In this document: piece by piece, positions 3,523-39,908 of the stretch
Layout of the letters: the number at the start of each line of letters is the position of its first letter
Numbering within the stretch: the first letter of the stretch is position 1
Origin: a virus
Taxonomy: Duplodnaviria > Heunggongvirae > Uroviricota > Caudoviricetes
DNA length: 39,908 nt
Reading direction: 5' to 3' (one strand)
IMG/VR virus record: IMGVR_UViG_2703718871_000021
Span: 1 to 39,908 of that record
Translations under genes and position numbers: made by a program
The notes under the pieces: model-generated
The model's input: only the letters and a program-made list of their open reading frames with translations
Told to the model about the DNA's origin: nothing
The model's database searches: none

Positions 3523-4320
3523 ATGCCCCTGGCGAAAATATTTACAAAGCAAGTTTCTTTATTAACTATGTTTTCAGCGTTAGCTTATGCGATGGCATAT
3601 TATTTTCAGAAAGGTGTTGCATCGTATTATGGCTATCCAGACCTTTTTATTAAAATAGACTTAAATACGCTATTGTATTCGGCTGTGTGGCTTTTGTTTT
3701 TTAGTTTTTTATTTCTCGGCGCCTTATATGCGGCGTTGATGTTTGATTTGAAAGGAAAATATTATGTTCCATTTATTGTATTTATAGTTGTTATGCTAAT
3801 GGCTAATATTTGTATAATAGGATTTCATTGGCCTTTTGGTTATTTCTCCGAAACTTCTGTGATGAGTGTTCAGGATATTTTATTATTTGCTATGCTTTTG
3901 TTGAATTATCACAATGTGGTGTCCATGCCAATCCATAGTAAGAGACACGAACATCATATGGAGAGCATTAGAAAATTTGGGAGGCTTGCAGAGTATAAGA
4001 ACGTATTTTATTATATCGATTTAAAAATCCTAAAGTCAGCTTTTCCTTTAGGGGTGATAACGTTGTTGATATTGAGCTATACATTCGGGAAGGTTACTGC
4101 ATTTAAAAATAACGAATATTATATGGTAGATGGTAGTAATACTAAAGTGTTGCTCAATTCATTTGGTAGTGGTTTTGTTGTTGGTGATTGTGAGTCAAAT
4201 AGCGCAAAATTTGAATTTGTTAATGATTTAAAAGGGATGAGATTCACAATCATGTCCTCTAAAAAGGAAATAGCTAAATTAAAAGAGTGTTTCGAAATAC
4301 GTGTTAAAAATACGGATTAA
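3523..4320 (+). CDS. hypothetical multi-pass membrane protein (AT-rich cargo gene)
   Basis: 265-aa ORF on the strand opposite to the surrounding early operon; visibly AT-rich; several long hydrophobic segments (LLYSAVWLLFFSFLFLGALYAAL, FIVFIVVMLMANICIIGF); GAGG-type RBS before ATG. Confidence 0.55.
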   Translation: MPLAKIFTKQVSLLTMFSALAYAMAYYFQKGVASYYGYPDLFIKIDLNTLLYSAVWLLFFSFLFLGALYAALMFDLKGKYYVPFIVFIVVMLMANICIIGFHWPFGYFSETSVMSVQDILLFAMLLLNYHNVVSMPIHSKRHEHHMESIRKFGRLAEYKNVFYYIDLKILKSAFPLGVITLLILSYTFGKVTAFKNNEYYMVDGSNTKVLLNSFGSGFVVGDCESNSAKFEFVNDLKGMRFTIMSSKKEIAKLKECFEIRVKNTD

Positions 4321-4332
4321 AGCATAAGTCTT

Positions 4333-4620
4333 TTATCCTTTATTGCGGCTTAAAATAATGGCCTCCAGATTTTTGCTATCCAGCACCACTACGGTAAAGC
4401 CCAGCGCGCGCAACCGTCCGTGTTCGCGCAACTGGTCAGGCCGTGGTGGCTTGCCGGGGGATTTACATTCAACGAAAATGATACGACCGCCGGGTAGCAG
4501 AACAATGCGATCTGGTACCGAGCGGCGACCGGGGGATACGAACTTAAAGGCAACCCCGCCAGCCTTTTTTACTTCAGCGACGAGGTGCTTTTCGATTAGG
4601 TTTTCACGTTCATAGGCCAT
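4333..4620 (-). CDS. VRR-NUC domain nuclease
   Basis: 95-aa ORF; EVKKAGG...FVECKSPGKPP...QLREH...GF pattern typical of VRR-NUC (PD-(D/E)xK-type) phage proteins; commonly paired with SNF2 helicases. Confidence 0.75.
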   Translation of the reverse strand: MAYERENLIEKHLVAEVKKAGGVAFKFVSPGRRSVPDRIVLLPGGRIIFVECKSPGKPPRPDQLREHGRLRALGFTVVVLDSKNLEAIILSRNKG

Positions 4621-4814
4621 TAGCTTTCGCCTTCCTGCTTTTTGCGTTTCTTCATGCAGATAGCGCAGTTCTCAGGATGGTCATGCCATTCATCAATCCT
4701 GATACCTGTGAACATCCATTTTCCGCATAGTGATATGGCTTCCCCCGAATTAAAGAAATGTGCTTTTTTTGACAGAGCGGGGAACCCCCAACCCTTATTA
4801 TCGATATTAGACAT
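4620..4814 (-). CDS. hypothetical small protein
   Basis: 64-aa ORF with strong RBS AAGGAGGTG before the ATG; stop overlaps VRR-NUC start; Cys/His-containing C-terminal part (HDHPENCAICMKK). Confidence 0.5.
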   Translation of the reverse strand: MSNIDNKGWGFPALSKKAHFFNSGEAISLCGKWMFTGIRIDEWHDHPENCAICMKKRKKQEGES

Positions 4815-4850
4815 CGTCCACCTCCTTACGCTTTTCGCGCATGTTCTGCA

Positions 4851-4985
4851 TCAGACAAAAATCAAACCGACGTTCGCTTTGGCCCAGACCTGCATCGCCC
4901 GGTCGTACCCGCCGGACTGTTCAAGGTGCAAAGCCTCCCGCACAGTCCGGTAATAAAGCGGACTGTCTCGGTATTTAAATGACAT
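4851..4985 (-). CDS. hypothetical small protein (44 aa)
   Basis: Short ORF found by hand (MSFKYRDSPLYYRTVREALHLEQSGGYDRAMQVWAKANVGLIFV), immediately upstream of and co-oriented with the 64-aa gene; below the 60-aa ORF-track cutoff. Confidence 0.3.
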   Translation of the reverse strand: MSFKYRDSPLYYRTVREALHLEQSGGYDRAMQVWAKANVGLIFV

Positions 4986-5000
4986 AGGGTTTTTATTCCC

Positions 5001-5027
5001 AAATAAAAAACCCCGCGATGCAGGGTT
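5001..5027 (-). terminator. putative rho-independent terminator downstream of the TIR-like gene
   Basis: On the minus strand CCCTGC-atc-GCGGGG hairpin followed by TTTTTTATTT. Confidence 0.45.
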
Positions 5028-5048
5028 GTAATCAACAATAAGGGGTAA

Positions 5049-5810
5049 TTACGAGGAAGCGTTAGCTATTTGAGCTTGTGTAAATTCGAAACCAGAATTT
5101 TGTAACCGTTGCACTAGACGAGGAACTGTTTCACGTACATGGTCGTTGAAATTCAGATACAAAATCCCGTTAGCATCAGAAGGCTGTTCTAGGTGCTGTT
5201 TCTGAAGGATTGCTACATTGCTGCGCCCTAAGGACGAAAGAAGCATACCCATCTCGAGTACAACGTTCTGTCTTGCGCGGGGTTGGATTTCTGCTTCACC
5301 GGCGCGCTTTGAGTATCCCATATCATCAGGTGTCAAAAGAACAATCCCGAAACGGGTAGCAGTTTGTCCTTGCCCAATTTCACGTTCAAGCTCTTCAATA
5401 ATGGTGAGTCCAGTCCCTCCCGTATTCTGCAAAATGAAATGGTCTGGTAATCCAAGTTTATGAAGGATTAGCTCAAGTTGCTCCTTTGCAGTATGGTCAT
5501 GGCCGTGAACAATGAATATCTTTTTGGGGAGCTCAGATGGCTGTTCTACGGCTAGTGGTGTTGCCGTGGGCGGCGTTCCTAAATGGGTCATTATTGCAGT
5601 TTCAACATTGGGACGTTCTTGAGGGTTACCTTGAAACTGAATGGTCCGGGTGGTGTAAAGGTTAACAATTACGCCATTCGTTAAACGATAGCAGTCACAA
5701 GTCTCACGCTGTTCGTGGGAAAAATTGGTGAACCCACACTCCCTCAAAAAGTCAGGAAAAGATTCTCTCGGGTATGGATAGGTGATCGGCATTTCAGTTA
5801 GTTCCTGCAT
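5049..5810 (-). CDS. TIR-like-domain protein with unknown N-terminal domain (candidate defence or counter-defence effector)
   Basis: 253-aa ORF; residues ~97-230 (KKIFIVHGHDHTAKEQLELIL...GLTIIEELE...FGIVLLTPDDMGY...NVVLEMGML) fit my recollection of the bacterial TIR-like family (PF10137/COG4271 type); N-terminal ~95 aa unassignable; co-oriented with DNA polymerase gene. Confidence 0.6.
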   Translation of the reverse strand: MQELTEMPITYPYPRESFPDFLRECGFTNFSHEQRETCDCYRLTNGVIVNLYTTRTIQFQGNPQERPNVETAIMTHLGTPPTATPLAVEQPSELPKKIFIVHGHDHTAKEQLELILHKLGLPDHFILQNTGGTGLTIIEELEREIGQGQTATRFGIVLLTPDDMGYSKRAGEAEIQPRARQNVVLEMGMLLSSLGRSNVAILQKQHLEQPSDANGILYLNFNDHVRETVPRLVQRLQNSGFEFTQAQIANASS

Positions 5811-5874
5811 AAGTATTGTTCCTTTAATTTACTCGAATTCAGCATGTCGCCATAGCTCGATAAGGTGAGTTATA

Positions 5875-7938
5875 TCAATCTTTTTTGTAGTGGTACGCCT
5901 CAAAACCGCCAGCGTTCAGTGGGATATCGGGCGCCCATTCGGGGTCAGTGGAGAGAAGCGCGGAAAGCGCTTTATCGTTGAAATCTTCTGTGTCAGGTGC
6001 TTCGGTGATCACCTCGTCGTGTACCGTCAGCACAATGCTGTAACCGGCATCTTCGATAAGCGGCATGTTTCCGGCCAGAATGTCGCGGGCGGCCGCCTGG
6101 GTGATGTTCTCCACCAGCTTTCCGCCGTAGGTTTTGAGTCGTTGCCATTTACTCGAATAAGAGTTAACCCCCATGTAGGTGATATTCCCTTTTTCGATAA
6201 CCGGAGACGGGTGGCATACAGCGCGTCCGGATGGTAGCTGTATGCGCAGCCACGCGCCATCGCGGCGGATTTTAAGATAACCGCAATACAATGTTTTTTG
6301 CGGTGTGGCGATTGCAGTGCGGACGGTGCGCTCCAGTTCGTACCAGAAATCACAGGTCGCGGGATGCGCCCGGCGCCAGAGACGTTTAAGTGAGTCGCAG
6401 GCGATAAATACCCGTTCAGAAAGCCCGTAGGTTGACTTGCGTTTAACCGATTCGTCGTACCAGCTTTTCGCCTCGCGGATAACATCGCGGGGAATGTTTG
6501 GTAGTGCGGCGTTCGCCAGCTCGTCGAGATCGAGACCGTAAACCAGTGCAAAAGTGATGAAGGCCGACACACCACCACCATAACCCAGACCGAGTTCCAT
6601 GACTTTACCGATCTGACGCATGTGTTTATCAACATCATCTGGTGCAATATCGAAAGCTTTTGCATACGCCAGTTTATATAAGTCCGGACCCGTTCCGGCG
6701 TCGTACTCTCTGAATGCATTCAGTTTCCATTCTTCTCCCGCCAGCCATGCCAGCATACGGCCTTCAATGTTCGACAAGTCACTTACCACCAGCTTTTTGC
6801 CTGTTGGCGCGATAATGCAGCCACGTAACGCTGAACTGGTTAGTTCCATGATATTGTCAAACAGCAGGTCTGCACATCCGGCTTTCAGTGCTTCGATGCC
6901 TTCGTCTATTTGTTCCTGTTTTAGTGAAGGGCGGGGAAGGTTCTGGGGCTGGAATAGCCGTCCGGCCCAACGACCGGTACGTGACGCCCCGCAGAACTGT
7001 AGCGTACCGCGTAAGCGCCCGTCGTGGCTTACGCCTTTCATCAGTGCCTTGTATTTACTGGTGCTGGTAGTACTGGCCTGCAGGCGGATAGCCAGCAGTT
7101 CTTTCACGGCAGATGGTAAATCGGGGTCGGCAATACGACGTTCCAGAGTACTGCGTTGCATGTCTGGTAGCTCCACACCGTAGGATTCAACAATGTGCTT
7201 AATCAACGCGTCTCGTTGTGTGGCTGCCTGCACTTTGCCATCAGTCATTTCCTGTGTACGCTTTGCCAGGCGCTTTTGTTCCTGGTCTACCGCGTCGATC
7301 GCAGCGCGTGCGAGTTCCACGTCCATGCAGACGCCCCGGTCATTGATCTGCTGATCACGATGCCAGAGCGCCAGTTCTGTCCCCTGATAATTCCACTTCG
7401 GCAGACGTTTATAGACTTCGCGCATTGCCTCGATATCCAGTCCGGCGTAAGCAACAAAGCGCCGCCATTCTTCCGGGTGGGTTTTGCTGGTGGCCCGGCG
7501 CAGTTTGCTGTTTTTCGGGCGTGGCTTACAGAACAGCTGGATCAGCGCTTTACCTTCTTTGTCCTTCGCTTTGTCTTGCGGGACGCCTAGTACTTCGCAG
7601 AGTTCCCCCAGAGACCCCGGGAGACCGTGCGCCAGCGCCTGCACCATTGTGTCGCGCCAACGTTCGACTGGCGGTGCCAGGCGCGGCATTGCATAACGCA
7701 GAACGGTGCGGTCGAAGTGAGAGTTATGGAAATAAAGCAGGGTTTCAGGGTCTGCGATTGCTTCGTATAAGCCGTGTGGAATACCACCACCGGCAGTGAT
7801 ATCCCATACGTTTACTGGCCCGTCGTTGATAGCCCATGCGAAAAGCATCACTTCAACGCCTTCGGCATACGCATGGGTACCGTTCGTAATAGGGATTTCG
7901 CAATAGGTTTCCAGGTCGCCCCATAGTATATTGGACAT
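5875..7938 (-). CDS. family A DNA polymerase with N-terminal 3'-5' exonuclease-like region
   Basis: 687-aa ORF; PolA motifs visible: motif A-like [16 protein letters not shown], motif B-like [16 protein letters not shown], motif C-like [10 protein letters not shown]. Confidence 0.9.
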
Positions 7939-7984
7939 GTGTTTACCTTGGTTTTTATTCTATTAACTGATTAAAAGATTAATT

Positions 7985-8614
7985 ATGCATATGATCCAAT
8001 ACTTGATTGACCATACAGAGCATCTGGAGAAAATAGCTGGATATATTTTTTCATGTTTGATTGTTATGGGAGTCTGGATAAGAAAGATCATTTTTAATTA
8101 TAAGTATAAAGAGCCTAAATATGTCAAGAAGTTAATTTTATATTTAGTTAAGTATGAACGTTATCTGGATGAGGAGGATAAGAGTGCCATAGAAAAAAGA
8201 ATAAATGATAAAATTATTCGTGATGCGCTGAAATTGCAATCCTCTTATAACCGAAGAGATGTTATTTACATTTGCAATAGATTAGAAAAAAGACAGTATA
8301 TAAATCAGTTGATTAAGCTTCAGAATTATATAGAGAAAGATAACGGAGTGTTTTTTATTAATGTTGATTTTTCAGGTTTTTTATTTATTATTAGTCGTCT
8401 GTTTTCCTTTCTGTGTTTTGTGCTGTTTACCCTTTTTTCTATTATCTGCATTATTTCCATAGGGCAAAATGAAGGCCTTTTAAATTATCTTGTGTATATG
8501 GTTATGATAATAGTTTTAGAGACTGTTGGTTTTTGGATGTATGATACTTTCCCGTCTAAGAAAAAGATCTGTGAACTAAATAAAGAATTGAGAAAGATTA
8601 AGATTCCTGAGTGA
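7985..8614 (+). CDS. hypothetical membrane protein (AT-rich cargo gene)
   Basis: 209-aa ORF on opposite strand to flanking replication genes; strongly AT-rich; Lys/Tyr/Ile-rich with hydrophobic segments (FLFIISRLFSFLCFVLFTLFSIICIISIG, LVYMVMIIVLETVGFW). Confidence 0.55.
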   Translation: MHMIQYLIDHTEHLEKIAGYIFSCLIVMGVWIRKIIFNYKYKEPKYVKKLILYLVKYERYLDEEDKSAIEKRINDKIIRDALKLQSSYNRRDVIYICNRLEKRQYINQLIKLQNYIEKDNGVFFINVDFSGFLFIISRLFSFLCFVLFTLFSIICIISIGQNEGLLNYLVYMVMIIVLETVGFWMYDTFPSKKKICELNKELRKIKIPE

Positions 8615-8666
8615 TTATACGCCTAATCAGTAGCCCGGTGTTTAACCGGGCGTCTATGAAGTAGGG

Positions 8667-9215
8667 TTAAATTAGTGCTTCAGCATCAGCACCTTCGCTG
8701 ATATCGTCGAAATCGTCAGCGCTTGCCACTCCGCCGCCAGCGAATGCATCGCCGTCTCGCAGGAACTGGACTCCGCCGAGTGAGGCATTAATGCGTTTAC
8801 CGAAATTATTGTCTTGTGCCCAGATATCGATAACGGCGTTTACATAGCACCCTGCATAGGGACGTCCGTCAGCCTGAATAAGTGGCGAACGATCGCGATC
8901 AAGAACAGCTGGGCGCGCTTTGTTAGCAGCATTCAGGAAGAAATTACCGGGGAAGCCTTCATACTCTGCTTTTTCATCACCATCATGCAGGCACAGATTG
9001 AGTTTTTTCTCCAGCTGGTTATAAATGGGCTCCCACTTCTCTCCCCATTTTTCCTTCGCTACCTGCTTCATAGCTTTACGGATTTCTTCCAGTTGTGGGT
9101 GTTTGGGTGACATTAAAAATACTGCGGAGAAACGTGGATCGCCTTCGCCGTTTACAGTTTTAGCTTCAAACAGAGACGGGAAGGCCAGACGAACATTGTT
9201 CAGCTTCAGTTTCAT
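8667..9215 (-). CDS. DUF2815-like phage protein (putative ssDNA-binding protein)
   Basis: 182-aa ORF starting MKLKLNNVRLAFPSLFEAK, a pattern I associate with DUF2815; acidic C-terminal tail (DDFDDISEGADAEALI) as in SSB-type proteins; adjacent to DUF2800-like and PolA genes. Confidence 0.65.
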   Translation of the reverse strand: MKLKLNNVRLAFPSLFEAKTVNGEGDPRFSAVFLMSPKHPQLEEIRKAMKQVAKEKWGEKWEPIYNQLEKKLNLCLHDGDEKAEYEGFPGNFFLNAANKARPAVLDRDRSPLIQADGRPYAGCYVNAVIDIWAQDNNFGKRINASLGGVQFLRDGDAFAGGGVASADDFDDISEGADAEALI

Positions 9216-34027: not shown

Positions 34028-34759
34028 ATGAGCTTAGCGCAGCCAAAATCAGGAGAACTGTTAGATCTTCTGACCCCTTCATTAACTAAGGGTGAAAATC
34101 TTCTGAGTGAATTTGAAGTACATCAAATCATTCGTGAAGCTAAGAAAATCCCGGAACGTTATCAGGGGTTATCGATTGAAGGCTTAGCTAAGCTTGTTCT
34201 TGGTGAAATCGAAGAGGGGTGCTCTCTCTGTGAACAAGGGTTGAGACTCGCTCCTAACGATTCAGTTTCTTTCTGTAACTATACGATAGCGCTGCGTAAC
34301 TTAGGTTTGCACGCTCGCCAGTACGCAATGATTCAGAATTCGGCCAACTCACTTAACCCAACAATACTGGCTGAAGTTGCAACAATTTCTGCATACTGGG
34401 CTGATATCGATTTGCTTGAAAAGGTGATGCCGATGCTGACAGCTATGGAAGTGCCGCGTCCTGAAGAAATGGCAAAGTGGTGTCACACACTTGATTATCT
34501 GCATACCCATCAAGAGCATGCTCAGGATCTCAAAACCATTGGGCAGTTAATGATGAATGTCGCAGACAAGTATCGTGTGCGTCTCGCGGGTGCTCATGCT
34601 TTTTACGTTTTGTCAGAACTTGATACGCTATTTGTGGAAGTCAAAACAGACGATCCAGCGCTCCTCTCGCAGATGAATAACGACCTAGCTGACGAGATTA
34701 TCAATGCTGGTCTTGCCGATTCTGAATGCGTCGGATGCTTTGAAGCGGGGGATTTTTAA
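34028..34759 (+). CDS. hypothetical protein, gene 1 of low-GC two-gene cassette
   Basis: 243-aa ORF after 149-bp intergenic gap; visibly lower GC than flanking tail genes; helical-looking with Cys pairs (CSLCEQG, CVGCFEAG); no recognised motif. Confidence 0.6.
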   Translation: MSLAQPKSGELLDLLTPSLTKGENLLSEFEVHQIIREAKKIPERYQGLSIEGLAKLVLGEIEEGCSLCEQGLRLAPNDSVSFCNYTIALRNLGLHARQYAMIQNSANSLNPTILAEVATISAYWADIDLLEKVMPMLTAMEVPRPEEMAKWCHTLDYLHTHQEHAQDLKTIGQLMMNVADKYRVRLAGAHAFYVLSELDTLFVEVKTDDPALLSQMNNDLADEIINAGLADSECVGCFEAGDF

Positions 34760-35187
34760 TGGCGGTTGAACATACCTGTTTCCTTGAGCTTGCAAAACAT
34801 TCCCTTACTTTAAACGGTGAAATGTGGACAAGAAACGCAATTAGCCGAGCATATTACGGCATGTATCATTCGGCGTTACGAATTACCAATAATTTGGTCC
34901 CAAGTTTTACTGAAGACGGTGAAAAATTAAAAGGTGGTGTTCACATGCGAGTCTATACCGTGTTTTGTAGCGGTGAAGCAGCTGCAGTGAACAATGTCGA
35001 TGTTAACGCAGTAAAAAAAATCGGCGTAAAGCTGAAAATGACGCATGCACAACGAATTAACTCAGATTACAAACTTGAGCGAAAGGTTAATCGAATTACA
35101 GCGATAAGCGCGATTCAGGATGCAGAAGAAGTCGATACAATCGTTAATCAACTTTTGAAGGTTGGCGACGATTCGTTAACCGCATAA
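34759..35187 (+). CDS. hypothetical protein with HEPN-like R-x6-H motif, gene 2 of cassette
   Basis: 142-aa ORF whose ATG overlaps gene-1 stop (TAATG); RAYYGMYH at residues 30-37 fits the R-x(4-6)-H pattern of HEPN RNase motifs (may be coincidental); low GC; terminator follows. Confidence 0.6.
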   Translation: MAVEHTCFLELAKHSLTLNGEMWTRNAISRAYYGMYHSALRITNNLVPSFTEDGEKLKGGVHMRVYTVFCSGEAAAVNNVDVNAVKKIGVKLKMTHAQRINSDYKLERKVNRITAISAIQDAEEVDTIVNQLLKVGDDSLTA

Positions 35188-38233: not shown

Positions 38234-39309
38234 TGGCAAAAAATGACTTTAAAGCATTCGCAACGGGTAAAAATGCCAATGTTATGTCGCAGGAGGAATG
38301 GGAAGCGTTGCCTGCGCTTTTATCCGGATTTACAGCAGGGAAAGCATCCAGTGCGCAAGTCAACAAGGCTATTCGGCAGGCCAGCTTTATTGCATCTGCA
38401 ATAGCACAATATACAGCAAATGAAAGTGGACTGGATGTACAGGATGATGGCGAGCAGGCCGGCTTTATCGCAAAAATGTCGTCTGCATTAGATAAGAACT
38501 ACCAGAGAATTAATGCCATACTTACCGCACTTGCTAATCTTTCAGCATCCGAAAACAAATTACCGTATTTTACCAATCAAGATACCGCTAATTTGGCTGA
38601 CCTGACACAGGTTGGGCGAGATATTTTGGCAAAAAGCTCTGTTGCTGATGTCCTTAAATATCTTGGTCTGGAAGATAATTCGACTTTTCCTGTAGGTGCC
38701 CCGATCCCGTGGCCATCAGATACAGTTCCATCTGGTTATGCTCTGATGCAGGGACAGACTTTTGACAAGTCTGCATACCCGAAACTTGCAGCCGCTTATC
38801 CGTCAGGCGTGATCCCTGATATGCGTGGCTGGACGATTAAGGGCAAGCCCGCCAGTGGTCGTGCCGTATTGTCTCAGGAACAGGACGGCATTAAATCGCA
38901 CACCCACAGCGCCAGCGTATCCAGTACGGATTTGGGTACGAAAACCACATCGTCGTTTGATTACGGGACGAAAACAACCTCACTATTTGACTATGGGACC
39001 AAAACTACCAGTAACGCCGGGAGTCACACGCATTCAATACCAACATCAGATGGTGCAAACCAGGGGGGGAAAATTCCACTGACATCTGGGCGTCTGGCAA
39101 CTCAATATACATCAGCAACAACAGGTTCCTCTGGCTCACATTCTCATACTGTAGGTATTGGTTCTCATCAGCACACTGTCGGTATTGGTGCACACACGCA
39201 CTCCGTTGCGATTGGCTCACATGGACACACCATCACCGTTAACGCTGCTGGTAACGCGGAAAACACCGTTAAAAACATTGCATTTAACTATATTGTGAGG
39301 CTTGCATAA
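38233..39309 (+). CDS. tail fiber protein with internal tandem repeats
   Basis: ~358 aa from ATG 38233; three GTKTTSxFDY repeats and three SH-x-HTVGIG/H-x-H repeats near the C-terminus; followed by tail fiber assembly gene. Confidence 0.7.
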
Positions 39310-39908
39310 TGGCATTCAGAATGAGTGAACAATCACGAACCATCAAAATTTATAATCTGCTGGCCGGAACTAATGAATTTATTGGTGAAGGTGACGCATA
39401 TATTCCACCTCATACAGGTCTACCTGCAAACAGTACCGATATTGTACCGCCAGATATTCCGGCTGGCTTCGTGGCTATTTTCAACAGTGATGAGGCGTCC
39501 TGGCATCTCGTTGAAGATCATCGTGGTAAAACGGTTTATGACGTGGCTTCCGGCGACGCGTTATTTATTTCTGAACTCGGTCCGTTACCGGAAAATGTTA
39601 CCTGGTTGTCGCCGGAAGGGGAATATCAGAAGTGGAACGGCATAGCCTGGGTGAAGGATACGGAAGCAGAAAAACTGTTCCGGATACGGGAGGCGGAAGA
39701 AACAAAAAACAACCTGATGCAGGTAGCCAGTGAGCATATTGCGCCGCTTCAGGATGCTGCAGATCTGGAAATTGCAACGGAGGAAGAAATCTCGTTGCTG
39801 GAAGCATGGAAAAAGTATCGGGTATTGCTGAACCGTGTTGATACATCAAGTGCACCGGATATTGAGTGGCCTGCTTCCCCAGTGGAATCAAGGAGTAAAC
39901 AAGCATAA
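39309..39908 (+). CDS. tail fiber assembly protein (Tfa/gpU-like)
   Basis: 199-aa ORF starting [58 protein letters not shown], typical Tfa N-terminus; stop is the last triplet of the window. Confidence 0.7.

Follow-up and report, generated by a model that had tools for sequence, protein, structure and literature searches.

The window analysed here, a stretch of 39,908 nucleotides (IMG/VR record IMGVR_UViG_2703718871_000021, positions 1 to 39,908), is a temperate E. coli prophage. At positions 7985-8614 of its + strand it carries a gene for a 209-amino-acid (aa) membrane protein, which lies in a gap between two genes of the replication module and is read in the direction opposite to theirs. 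Comparison with sister prophages and with the relatives of the protein shows an independent accessory gene, best read as an autonomous “moron”, horizontally acquired and exchanged by recombination in the conserved genes on either side. The same comparison shows that the slot and its neighbourhood are common to validated or candidate defence genes (SIR2/PDC-S25, BstA, and TIR/PDC-S35). As for the product, a lysogen-protecting anti-phage function, taken as a class, has in our estimate about an even chance of being correct; its expression pattern, this function and the mechanism discussed below are what we infer from these data. The gene, the cassette in which it lies and the flanking genes are the following:

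7985..8614 (+), coding sequence, with an ATG start, of the predicted 209-aa inner-membrane protein with three transmembrane (TM) helices (phrog_10579 family)
7939..8666 (no strand), exchangeable cassette from the polymerase start codon to the DUF2815 stop codon, completely replaced between sister prophages
5875..7938 (−), left flank, family-A DNA polymerase (DNA_pol_A)
8667..9215 (−), right flank, DUF2815/Enc34-type single-stranded DNA-binding protein (Enc34_ssDNA-bd), with a DUF2800 nuclease next to it

Among complete E. coli genomes, 159 have these flanks, and 67 of them carry the 209-aa gene. In the sister prophages, the content of the gap is wholly different where the flanks are 97-99% identical; the variable part extends from the polymerase start codon to within a few bases of the DUF2815 stop codon. 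The first-pass annotation of this stretch had proposed an independently inserted cargo gene and had named a conserved phage core gene as the opposite outcome. With other content found in the exact same gap elsewhere, the proposal is supported, and at this frequency of carriers the gene is not core.

The alternative contents of the gap are diverse. A diverged 199-aa paralogue is found in L002, and in L037 and L038 it is accompanied by an AntA- or Bro-N-type antirepressor gene with C4 antisense RNA. L003 contains an 89-aa two-TM protein and an Nmad5 gene, L048 and L049 contain a 229-aa protein and Nmad5, and L004 contains a 166-aa N-terminally anchored protein. In L047 (E. coli TUM1880), the gap is occupied by a 493-aa SIR2 protein encoded on the operon strand (4442-5923, −), which matches the PADLOC candidate PDC-S25 with E=3.9e-157 and also ThsA-type SIR2 models. 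Homology of the 209-aa protein to the 166-aa and 89-aa proteins, as well as to the 265-aa occupant of another slot described below, was tested and none was found. In L037 (5715-7530) and L038 (5715-6860), the C4 antisense RNA (Rfam RF01695, 70-76 bits) precedes the antirepressor gene in a P1/P7 immI-like module, and L037 has an additional sRNA-Xcc1 match at 6759-6844.

When the window is compared with phage 606R2 (L001 6045-6674), the cargo gene has 0 synonymous differences, whereas the proportion of synonymous differences (pS) in the adjacent polymerase gene is 0.13, which argues for recent transfer of the cassette between diverged backbones. Four non-synonymous nucleotide differences in the cargo gene lead to the substitutions V55I, E63K, and S67K, all in the cytoplasmic domain of the protein; possibly, this is diversifying change in a putative sensor domain, the counts being too small to test. 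In the prophage of enterotoxigenic E. coli (ETEC) H10407 (L015), the polymerase gene is frameshifted (4662-6736) and the SNF2 gene is interrupted by a stop codon (439-1833), and the 209-aa gene and a gene for a BstA homologue are intact. This pattern is consistent with retention of the cargo in a decaying prophage.

The gene set of the window includes an integrase, a CI/Cro-like switch, VapE, Q, lysis genes, and structural genes. Over this region, it is ~99% identical to the induced phages vB_EcoM-606R2, -689R2, and -611R5, and related prophages occur in 159 of the 5426 complete E. coli genomes (~3%). The (−) strand genes between ~11600 and 2067 make up the early-left replication/recombination operon, which adjoins the repressor. 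The location of the 209-aa gene between the genes for the polymerase and the single-stranded DNA-binding protein, together with a homologue that is co-oriented with late tail genes in P2-like prophages, could suggest a phage life-cycle gene of the replication module, serving, for example, membrane anchoring of replication or lysis timing. We regard this as highly improbable: the gene gives way to unrelated ones between nearly identical flanks, it stands on the strand opposite to the replication operon, its homologues are found in a tail operon, an integrative and conjugative element (ICE) and a chromosome, and it is intact in the H10407 prophage, whose polymerase gene is a pseudogene. Moreover, in the 50,697 phage records searched, the family occurs only in three temperate relatives and in none of the virulent phages.

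The gene differs sharply from its surroundings in composition. Its GC content is 0.29 (0.32 at third codon positions, GC3) against a window average of 0.50, and the sliding GC profile has a sharp trough at ~7950-8550; the protein is composed of 14.8% I, 11.0% L, 10.0% K, and 7.2% Y. Thus, the first-pass description of an AT-rich, opposite-strand gene between the DNA polymerase and DUF2815 genes, with a Lys/Ile/Tyr-rich product of 209 aa, is accurate, as is the statement that this product is unrelated to the protein encoded at 3523-4320 (BLASTP E=3.8). Given the base composition of the cassette, a stop codon is expected every ~11 codons and the probability of 209 codons remaining open is ~4e-9; the cassette contains an open stretch of up to 215 codons, and 2000 shuffles reached 136 at most. 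Therefore, the frame is not a chance product of AT-rich DNA.

A scan that read every one of 1.84 billion representative proteins revealed just 10 relatives of the 209-aa protein, six of them full-length (~210-218 aa), with an identity of 25-43% and alignments beginning at query residues 1-4. Word-indexed searches contributed a 199-aa subfamily and a Xenorhabdus branch. The 199-aa protein scores 48.9 bits against a profile built without it, and 200 shuffles score at most 7.5 bits; by this measure, it is a true full-length member of the family. The ratio of non-synonymous to synonymous substitution rates (dN/dS) is 0.12-0.29 within the 199-aa subfamily and 0.29 between the window and H10407 alleles. 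Taken together, these comparisons show that the gene at 7985-8614 is real and, judging by the substitution pattern, under purifying selection.

The protein matches phrog_10579, a PHROGs family of unknown function, with E=2.9e-108 (profile positions 1-182 of 182 against residues 28-209), and 17 of the 18 aligned family members match it as well. Met28, where this profile begins, was considered as the true start and rejected: the N-terminal motif Y-x-x-(D/E)-H-x-E and the first TM helix (TM1) are conserved, whereas Met28 is not. The alignments of six relatives begin at residues 1-4, so that the start is likely to be Met1 at 7985. In the source annotations, the protein is called “hypothetical” or “putative transmembrane protein”.

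The very low GC content and the weak expression signals could also point to an AT-rich open reading frame (ORF) without function, decaying or selfish, or to a membrane toxin silenced by H-NS; truncated and frameshifted copies do exist (P0002, 158 aa; many partial entries). This explanation is very unlikely, given that the full frame is kept at 25-43% identity with dN/dS of 0.12-0.29, that the exact 209-aa sequence is present on 945 contigs and that the gene is retained intact in a degraded prophage.

Hydrophobic segments were found at residues 14-37, 127-163, and 163-186. The long C-terminal hydrophobic block reported in the first-pass annotation is indeed present and corresponds to the last two segments; it is not the whole of the membrane part, as the N-terminal helix had been missed. 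The predicted layout consists of an N-tail (1-16), TM1 (17-37), a cytoplasmic domain (38-127), TM2 (128-160), a short loop, TM3 (166-188), and a tail (189-209). The counts of lysine and arginine satisfy the positive-inside rule in all 16 aligned members: 15-22 in the 38-127 segment, 0-1 in the TM2–TM3 loop, and 3-7 in the C-tail, the N-tail being acidic. This distribution argues for an N-out/C-in topology with a basic cytoplasmic domain of ~90 aa between TM1 and TM2. The protein is thus predicted to be a three-pass inner-membrane protein with an outside N-terminus, TM1, a Lys-rich cytoplasmic domain, a TM2–TM3 hairpin, and a conserved basic cytoplasmic tail.

Conservation peaks in the cytoplasmic motif at 50-82 (YL-KY--YL---DK--I---IN-EI) and in the C-tail at 189-209, where P190, I195, N199, L202, and K204 are conserved and N199 and L202 are invariant. 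The TM helices are conserved less than the cytoplasmic parts, and the membrane-embedded Glu179 is kept in most branches of the family. The AlphaFold2 model constructed from an 18-sequence alignment has a mean predicted local distance difference test (pLDDT) value of 81 and contains one long helix for TM1, four helices in the cytoplasmic domain with a beta-hairpin (116-125) after them, two more long TM helices, and a short helix at the C-terminus. A sequence-profile search of the PDB with the family returned only TM noise (ArcB, bacteriorhodopsin), and Pfam at E<=10 returned only noise of TM composition (DUF5325, DUF350, DUF2207_C).

This architecture bears on the choice between two kinds of anti-phage action. 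T4 Imm, P22 SieA, and HK97 gp15 block the entry of an incoming phage genome without killing the cell, and exclusion proteins of this type are classic single-gene morons. Superinfection exclusion (Sie) proper, i.e., a block of genome entry at the inner membrane without cell death, would differ from the explanation that we prefer in mechanism only. It would suit a small polytopic inner-membrane protein that is encoded by a prophage and has no partner gene in any family context. However, in the predicted topology, hardly anything is exposed to the periplasm (the 16-aa N-tail and a loop of ~5 aa), and the conserved parts are cytoplasmic, which suits sensing better than interference with an entering tail/tape-measure complex, although a block from the cytoplasmic face would still be possible. 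Because almost nothing of the protein is periplasmic, Sie is ranked second, and we favour abortive infection over a block of DNA entry, with the latter as a close second; on its own, Sie remains an unlikely, if serious, candidate.

The family, as sampled by these searches, is small and confined to Enterobacterales. Its members always stand alone, with no conserved neighbour or partner gene in any context, and are always AT-rich (GC 0.28-0.40 compared with 0.42-0.57 in the surroundings). In P2-like prophages of Rahnella and related Enterobacterales, a member 38% identical to the 209-aa protein occupies the gap between gpS and gpV, known as the P2 “orf30” site. This gap is one of three loci of horizontally acquired genes in P2-like phages (PMC3091744, PMC6823313), and the P2 lysogenic-conversion loci (orf30, old/tin, Z/fun) resemble the cargo slot of the window. 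They differ from it in that the phage is of another type and the orf30 slot lies in a late tail operon and is read from the same strand as the tail genes. P2 orf30 itself is a short ORF of 261 bp (PMC6823313), and it was not found as a relative among the phage records.

In a lambdoid prophage, the gene directly precedes Q and has a GAPS4-type nuclease, a methylase and HNH pair, and an HD protein as neighbours; in other genomes, it adjoins DUF1367 and an integrase, or lies in an ICE-like region with TraG. For the ICE copy, TraS-like entry exclusion was considered and rejected, the Pfam TraS model giving E=0.1 in one member and the gene not being at the traS position. The integrase-associated island of Serratia sp. 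Ag1 is composed of an integrase, DUF6338, the family gene, an unknown ORF, an AAA_15/AAA_21 ATPase, and HsdS. In this genome (L017), DUF6338 and the family member are located at 4805-5404 and 6001-6630 of the same island. DUF6338, which is also found in a slot of TUM1880, may be another mobile candidate defence gene. In Xenorhabdus, the gene occupies a core-chromosome site, lepB-rnc-era-recO-pdxJ-acpS-yfhL on one side and HhH-GPD-tadA-mltF-purL on the other, and its copies (L044-L046 5001-5648) have a GC content of 0.28-0.29 compared with 0.43-0.46. A search of the plasmid collection revealed no copies of the family, and no literature was found under the phage names, the RefSeq accession or the PDC names.

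The gap is not the only variable place in the replication module. Two other slots can be noted:

3523..4320 (+), second opposite-strand cargo slot, in the SNF2/VRR-NUC gap, occupied in the window by an unrelated 265-aa multi-TM protein
5049..5810 (−), third variable slot, TIR-domain protein (PADLOC PDC-S35, E=7e-109; CAP12/Pycsar-type TIR Pfam family)

In ETEC H10407, the SNF2/VRR-NUC slot (L015 1944-2873, +) contains a BstA homologue (PADLOC E=2.5e-110) beside a cytosine methyltransferase; in TUM1880, it contains a DUF6338 protein, and in other strains, other small genes. The slots at 7985-8614 and 3523-4320 are therefore both variable, which supports the earlier suggestion of a cargo hotspot in the replication module. 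The TIR slot lies between the polymerase and ANR/VRR-NUC genes, and the TIR gene is missing in H10407, L048, L049, and L023-L026. H10407 and L023-L026 have the 209-aa gene without TIR, and TUM1880 and L037 have TIR with other contents of the gap. Functional pairing of the 209-aa gene with the TIR (PDC-S35) gene was rejected in the absence of obligate co-occurrence. Since presence and absence are independent among the sister prophages, the three cargo genes are not one system.

BstA is an experimentally validated abortive-infection protein of prophages (PMC8585504). Like the 209-aa gene, it is a single-gene prophage moron, and in H10407, it occupies the neighbouring opposite-strand slot. It differs in being soluble and DNA-associated and in localising to phage replication sites, whereas the 209-aa protein is polytopic and has no similarity to the BstA models. 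As sister prophages hold known anti-phage genes in the same exchangeable slots, the 209-aa gene is a reasonable candidate for phage exclusion. The lysogen-protecting function, by which the prophage would be protected as well, was proposed on the grounds that this is an accessory gene for a polytopic membrane protein, exchanged by recombination, with defence genes as slot-mates and neighbours, and intact in a degraded prophage.

Among the known systems, SieB of lambda and P22 is the most obvious one for comparison. It is an abortive-infection (Abi) type prophage protein that acts in the lysogen against other phages. Similar to the 209-aa protein, it is a membrane protein (~190 aa), has a cytoplasmic domain, and is the product of one gene on the strand opposite the early-left operon: the lambda sieB ORF (34482-35036) is on the + strand between ral and N, and the pL operon is on the − strand. 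In SieB, hydrophobic helices near the N-terminus are followed by a soluble C-terminal domain, whereas in the 209-aa protein, the cytoplasmic domain is located between TM1 and TM2–TM3. There is no Pfam match to SieB (PF14163) at E<=10, and hhalign of the family alignment against lambda SieB gave a probability of 0.1%. By analogy, then, the gene resembles sieB in position and general type and is not a member of that family.

Lambda RexB and the 2TM/SLATT effectors of retrons, of cyclic-oligonucleotide-based anti-phage signalling systems (CBASS) and of Pycsar are small polytopic inner-membrane proteins as well; they are thought to collapse the membrane when a phage infects the cell, which is the mechanism proposed here for the 209-aa protein. 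They depend on a sensor encoded by a partner gene (RexA, a cyclase, or a reverse transcriptase), whereas the 209-aa gene has no conserved neighbour. The RT-SLATT model gave a meaningless E=0.085-0.28 in one subfamily member, and PADLOC-DB v2 gave only scattered non-significant matches across the family. The only link to a catalogued defence candidate, a hint at the level of profile similarity, is PADLOC PDC-S47 (PDLC05024), an uncharacterised single-gene phage-defence candidate, for which the literature search found no paper mentioning it. It was matched weakly, partially and below threshold (best E=8.3e-5) by 12 of the 17 members of the Xenorhabdus branch, with residues 18-94 aligned to positions 30-109 of the 265-position profile, spanning TM1 and the first cytoplasmic motif; the window protein (E<=1) and the other branches do not match it.

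Two elements near the ends of the gene are relevant to its possible regulation:

7932..7961 (+), promoter-like site, TGGACA and TATTCT separated by 18 nt, 9/12 consensus matches, 24 nt upstream of the ATG
8633..8651 (no strand), G+C hairpin of 7 bp, GCCCGG[U]...CCGGGC, within the 52 nt that separate the two convergent stop codons

The promoter-like site overlaps the polymerase start codon. In the 7700-8900 region, five such sites were seen, all on the + strand, and 3.7 +/- 1.7 are expected by chance. The hairpin is stable (z ~-3 on both strands), has no U-tract on either strand, and might serve for attenuation, processing, or RNA stability. Elsewhere in the window, a full-length match to another RNA, Rfam RF02111 (IS009 RNA, 219 bits), is located at 39652-39850 (+), within the ORF region 39309-39908 near the right end.

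The orientation of the gene suggests when it could be expressed. The ATG of the cargo gene and the polymerase start are separated by just 46 bp, so the early-left operon must read the cassette antisense to express the polymerase. Because the gene faces the operon, it would be expected to have its own promoter and to be transcribed in the lysogen, where the operon is repressed. Upon induction, head-on transcription and antisense RNA from the operon would silence the gene, and this would spare the phage its own exclusion protein. In an infected lysogen, the conserved cytoplasmic domain and tail would sense a cue of phage infection, and the TM helices, including Glu179, would then compromise the membrane.

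Several observations weigh against a lysogen-protecting function or against such expression. The promoter match at 7932-7961 is weak, sites of this kind being no commoner than chance; no canonical terminator was found for the gene, only the hairpin lacking a U-tract; and at 29% GC, H-NS might silence the gene in lysogens. In PADLOC-DB v2, which includes RexAB, Abi, CBASS/Pycsar TM effectors, BstA, and others, 0 families matched the window protein at E<=1, and comparison of its fold with the PDB gave no significant match. Several slot-mates are non-defence genes, namely Nmad5, which is a gene for DNA modification, and the Ant/C4 immunity module, and for this reason, slot membership by itself is no proof of defence. 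Finally, the Xenorhabdus site is syntenic in at least 15 species, with 71-81% identity, which also fits a membrane role of the housekeeping type.

The last point and the lack of a match between the window protein and the known defence models speak for lysogenic conversion without defence or for housekeeping, for instance for tolerance of envelope stress, for immunity to a membrane-acting bacteriocin or toxin, or for an action on a host membrane complex that modulates it; in many species, the gene of the Xenorhabdus branch is fixed at a single site of the core genome. Some immunity proteins against pore-forming colicins share the three-TM size class. Nevertheless, no toxin or bacteriocin gene adjoins the family gene in any context, the conservation lies in cytoplasmic segments and not in the TM helices that immunity proteins use, and the slot-mates and neighbours in E. 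coli and Serratia are mostly of the defence type. We therefore consider a non-defence role rather improbable.

A broader proposal is made tentatively, being doubtful enough as a whole. In it, phrog_10579, the 199-aa paralogue, and the P2, ICE, and Xenorhabdus relatives would constitute an unrecognised single-gene membrane anti-phage system, in which a cytoplasmic sensor clamped between TM1 and the TM2–TM3 hairpin causes the membrane to fail or prevents entry of the genome. The replication module would carry defence genes in three slots (BstA or a membrane protein in one, TIR in another, SIR2 or a membrane protein in the third), and the antisense position of the cargo would automatically restrict its expression to lysogeny and make the phage immune to it on induction. 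As a class, morons of prophages in hotspots of the defence type are familiar and are not surprising to a specialist. What is new is the protein family, its layout of TM, cytoplasmic domain and TM–TM, its spread over prophages, ICE, and chromosomes, and the three-slot organisation of the module.

If the proposal is true, a compact membrane protein family without partners would be added to the prophage-borne defences, and the replication module found in a common lineage of E. coli prophages would be a three-slot defence hotspot to mine; the unrelated 265-aa, 229-aa, 166-aa, and 89-aa membrane proteins and DUF6338 are further candidates from it. The head-on orientation in an essential phage operon would provide a simple model for dormancy-only expression of a potentially self-harmful exclusion gene. 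If the protein has no anti-phage activity, the fixed Xenorhabdus copy would point to a membrane function common to chromosomes and mobile elements.

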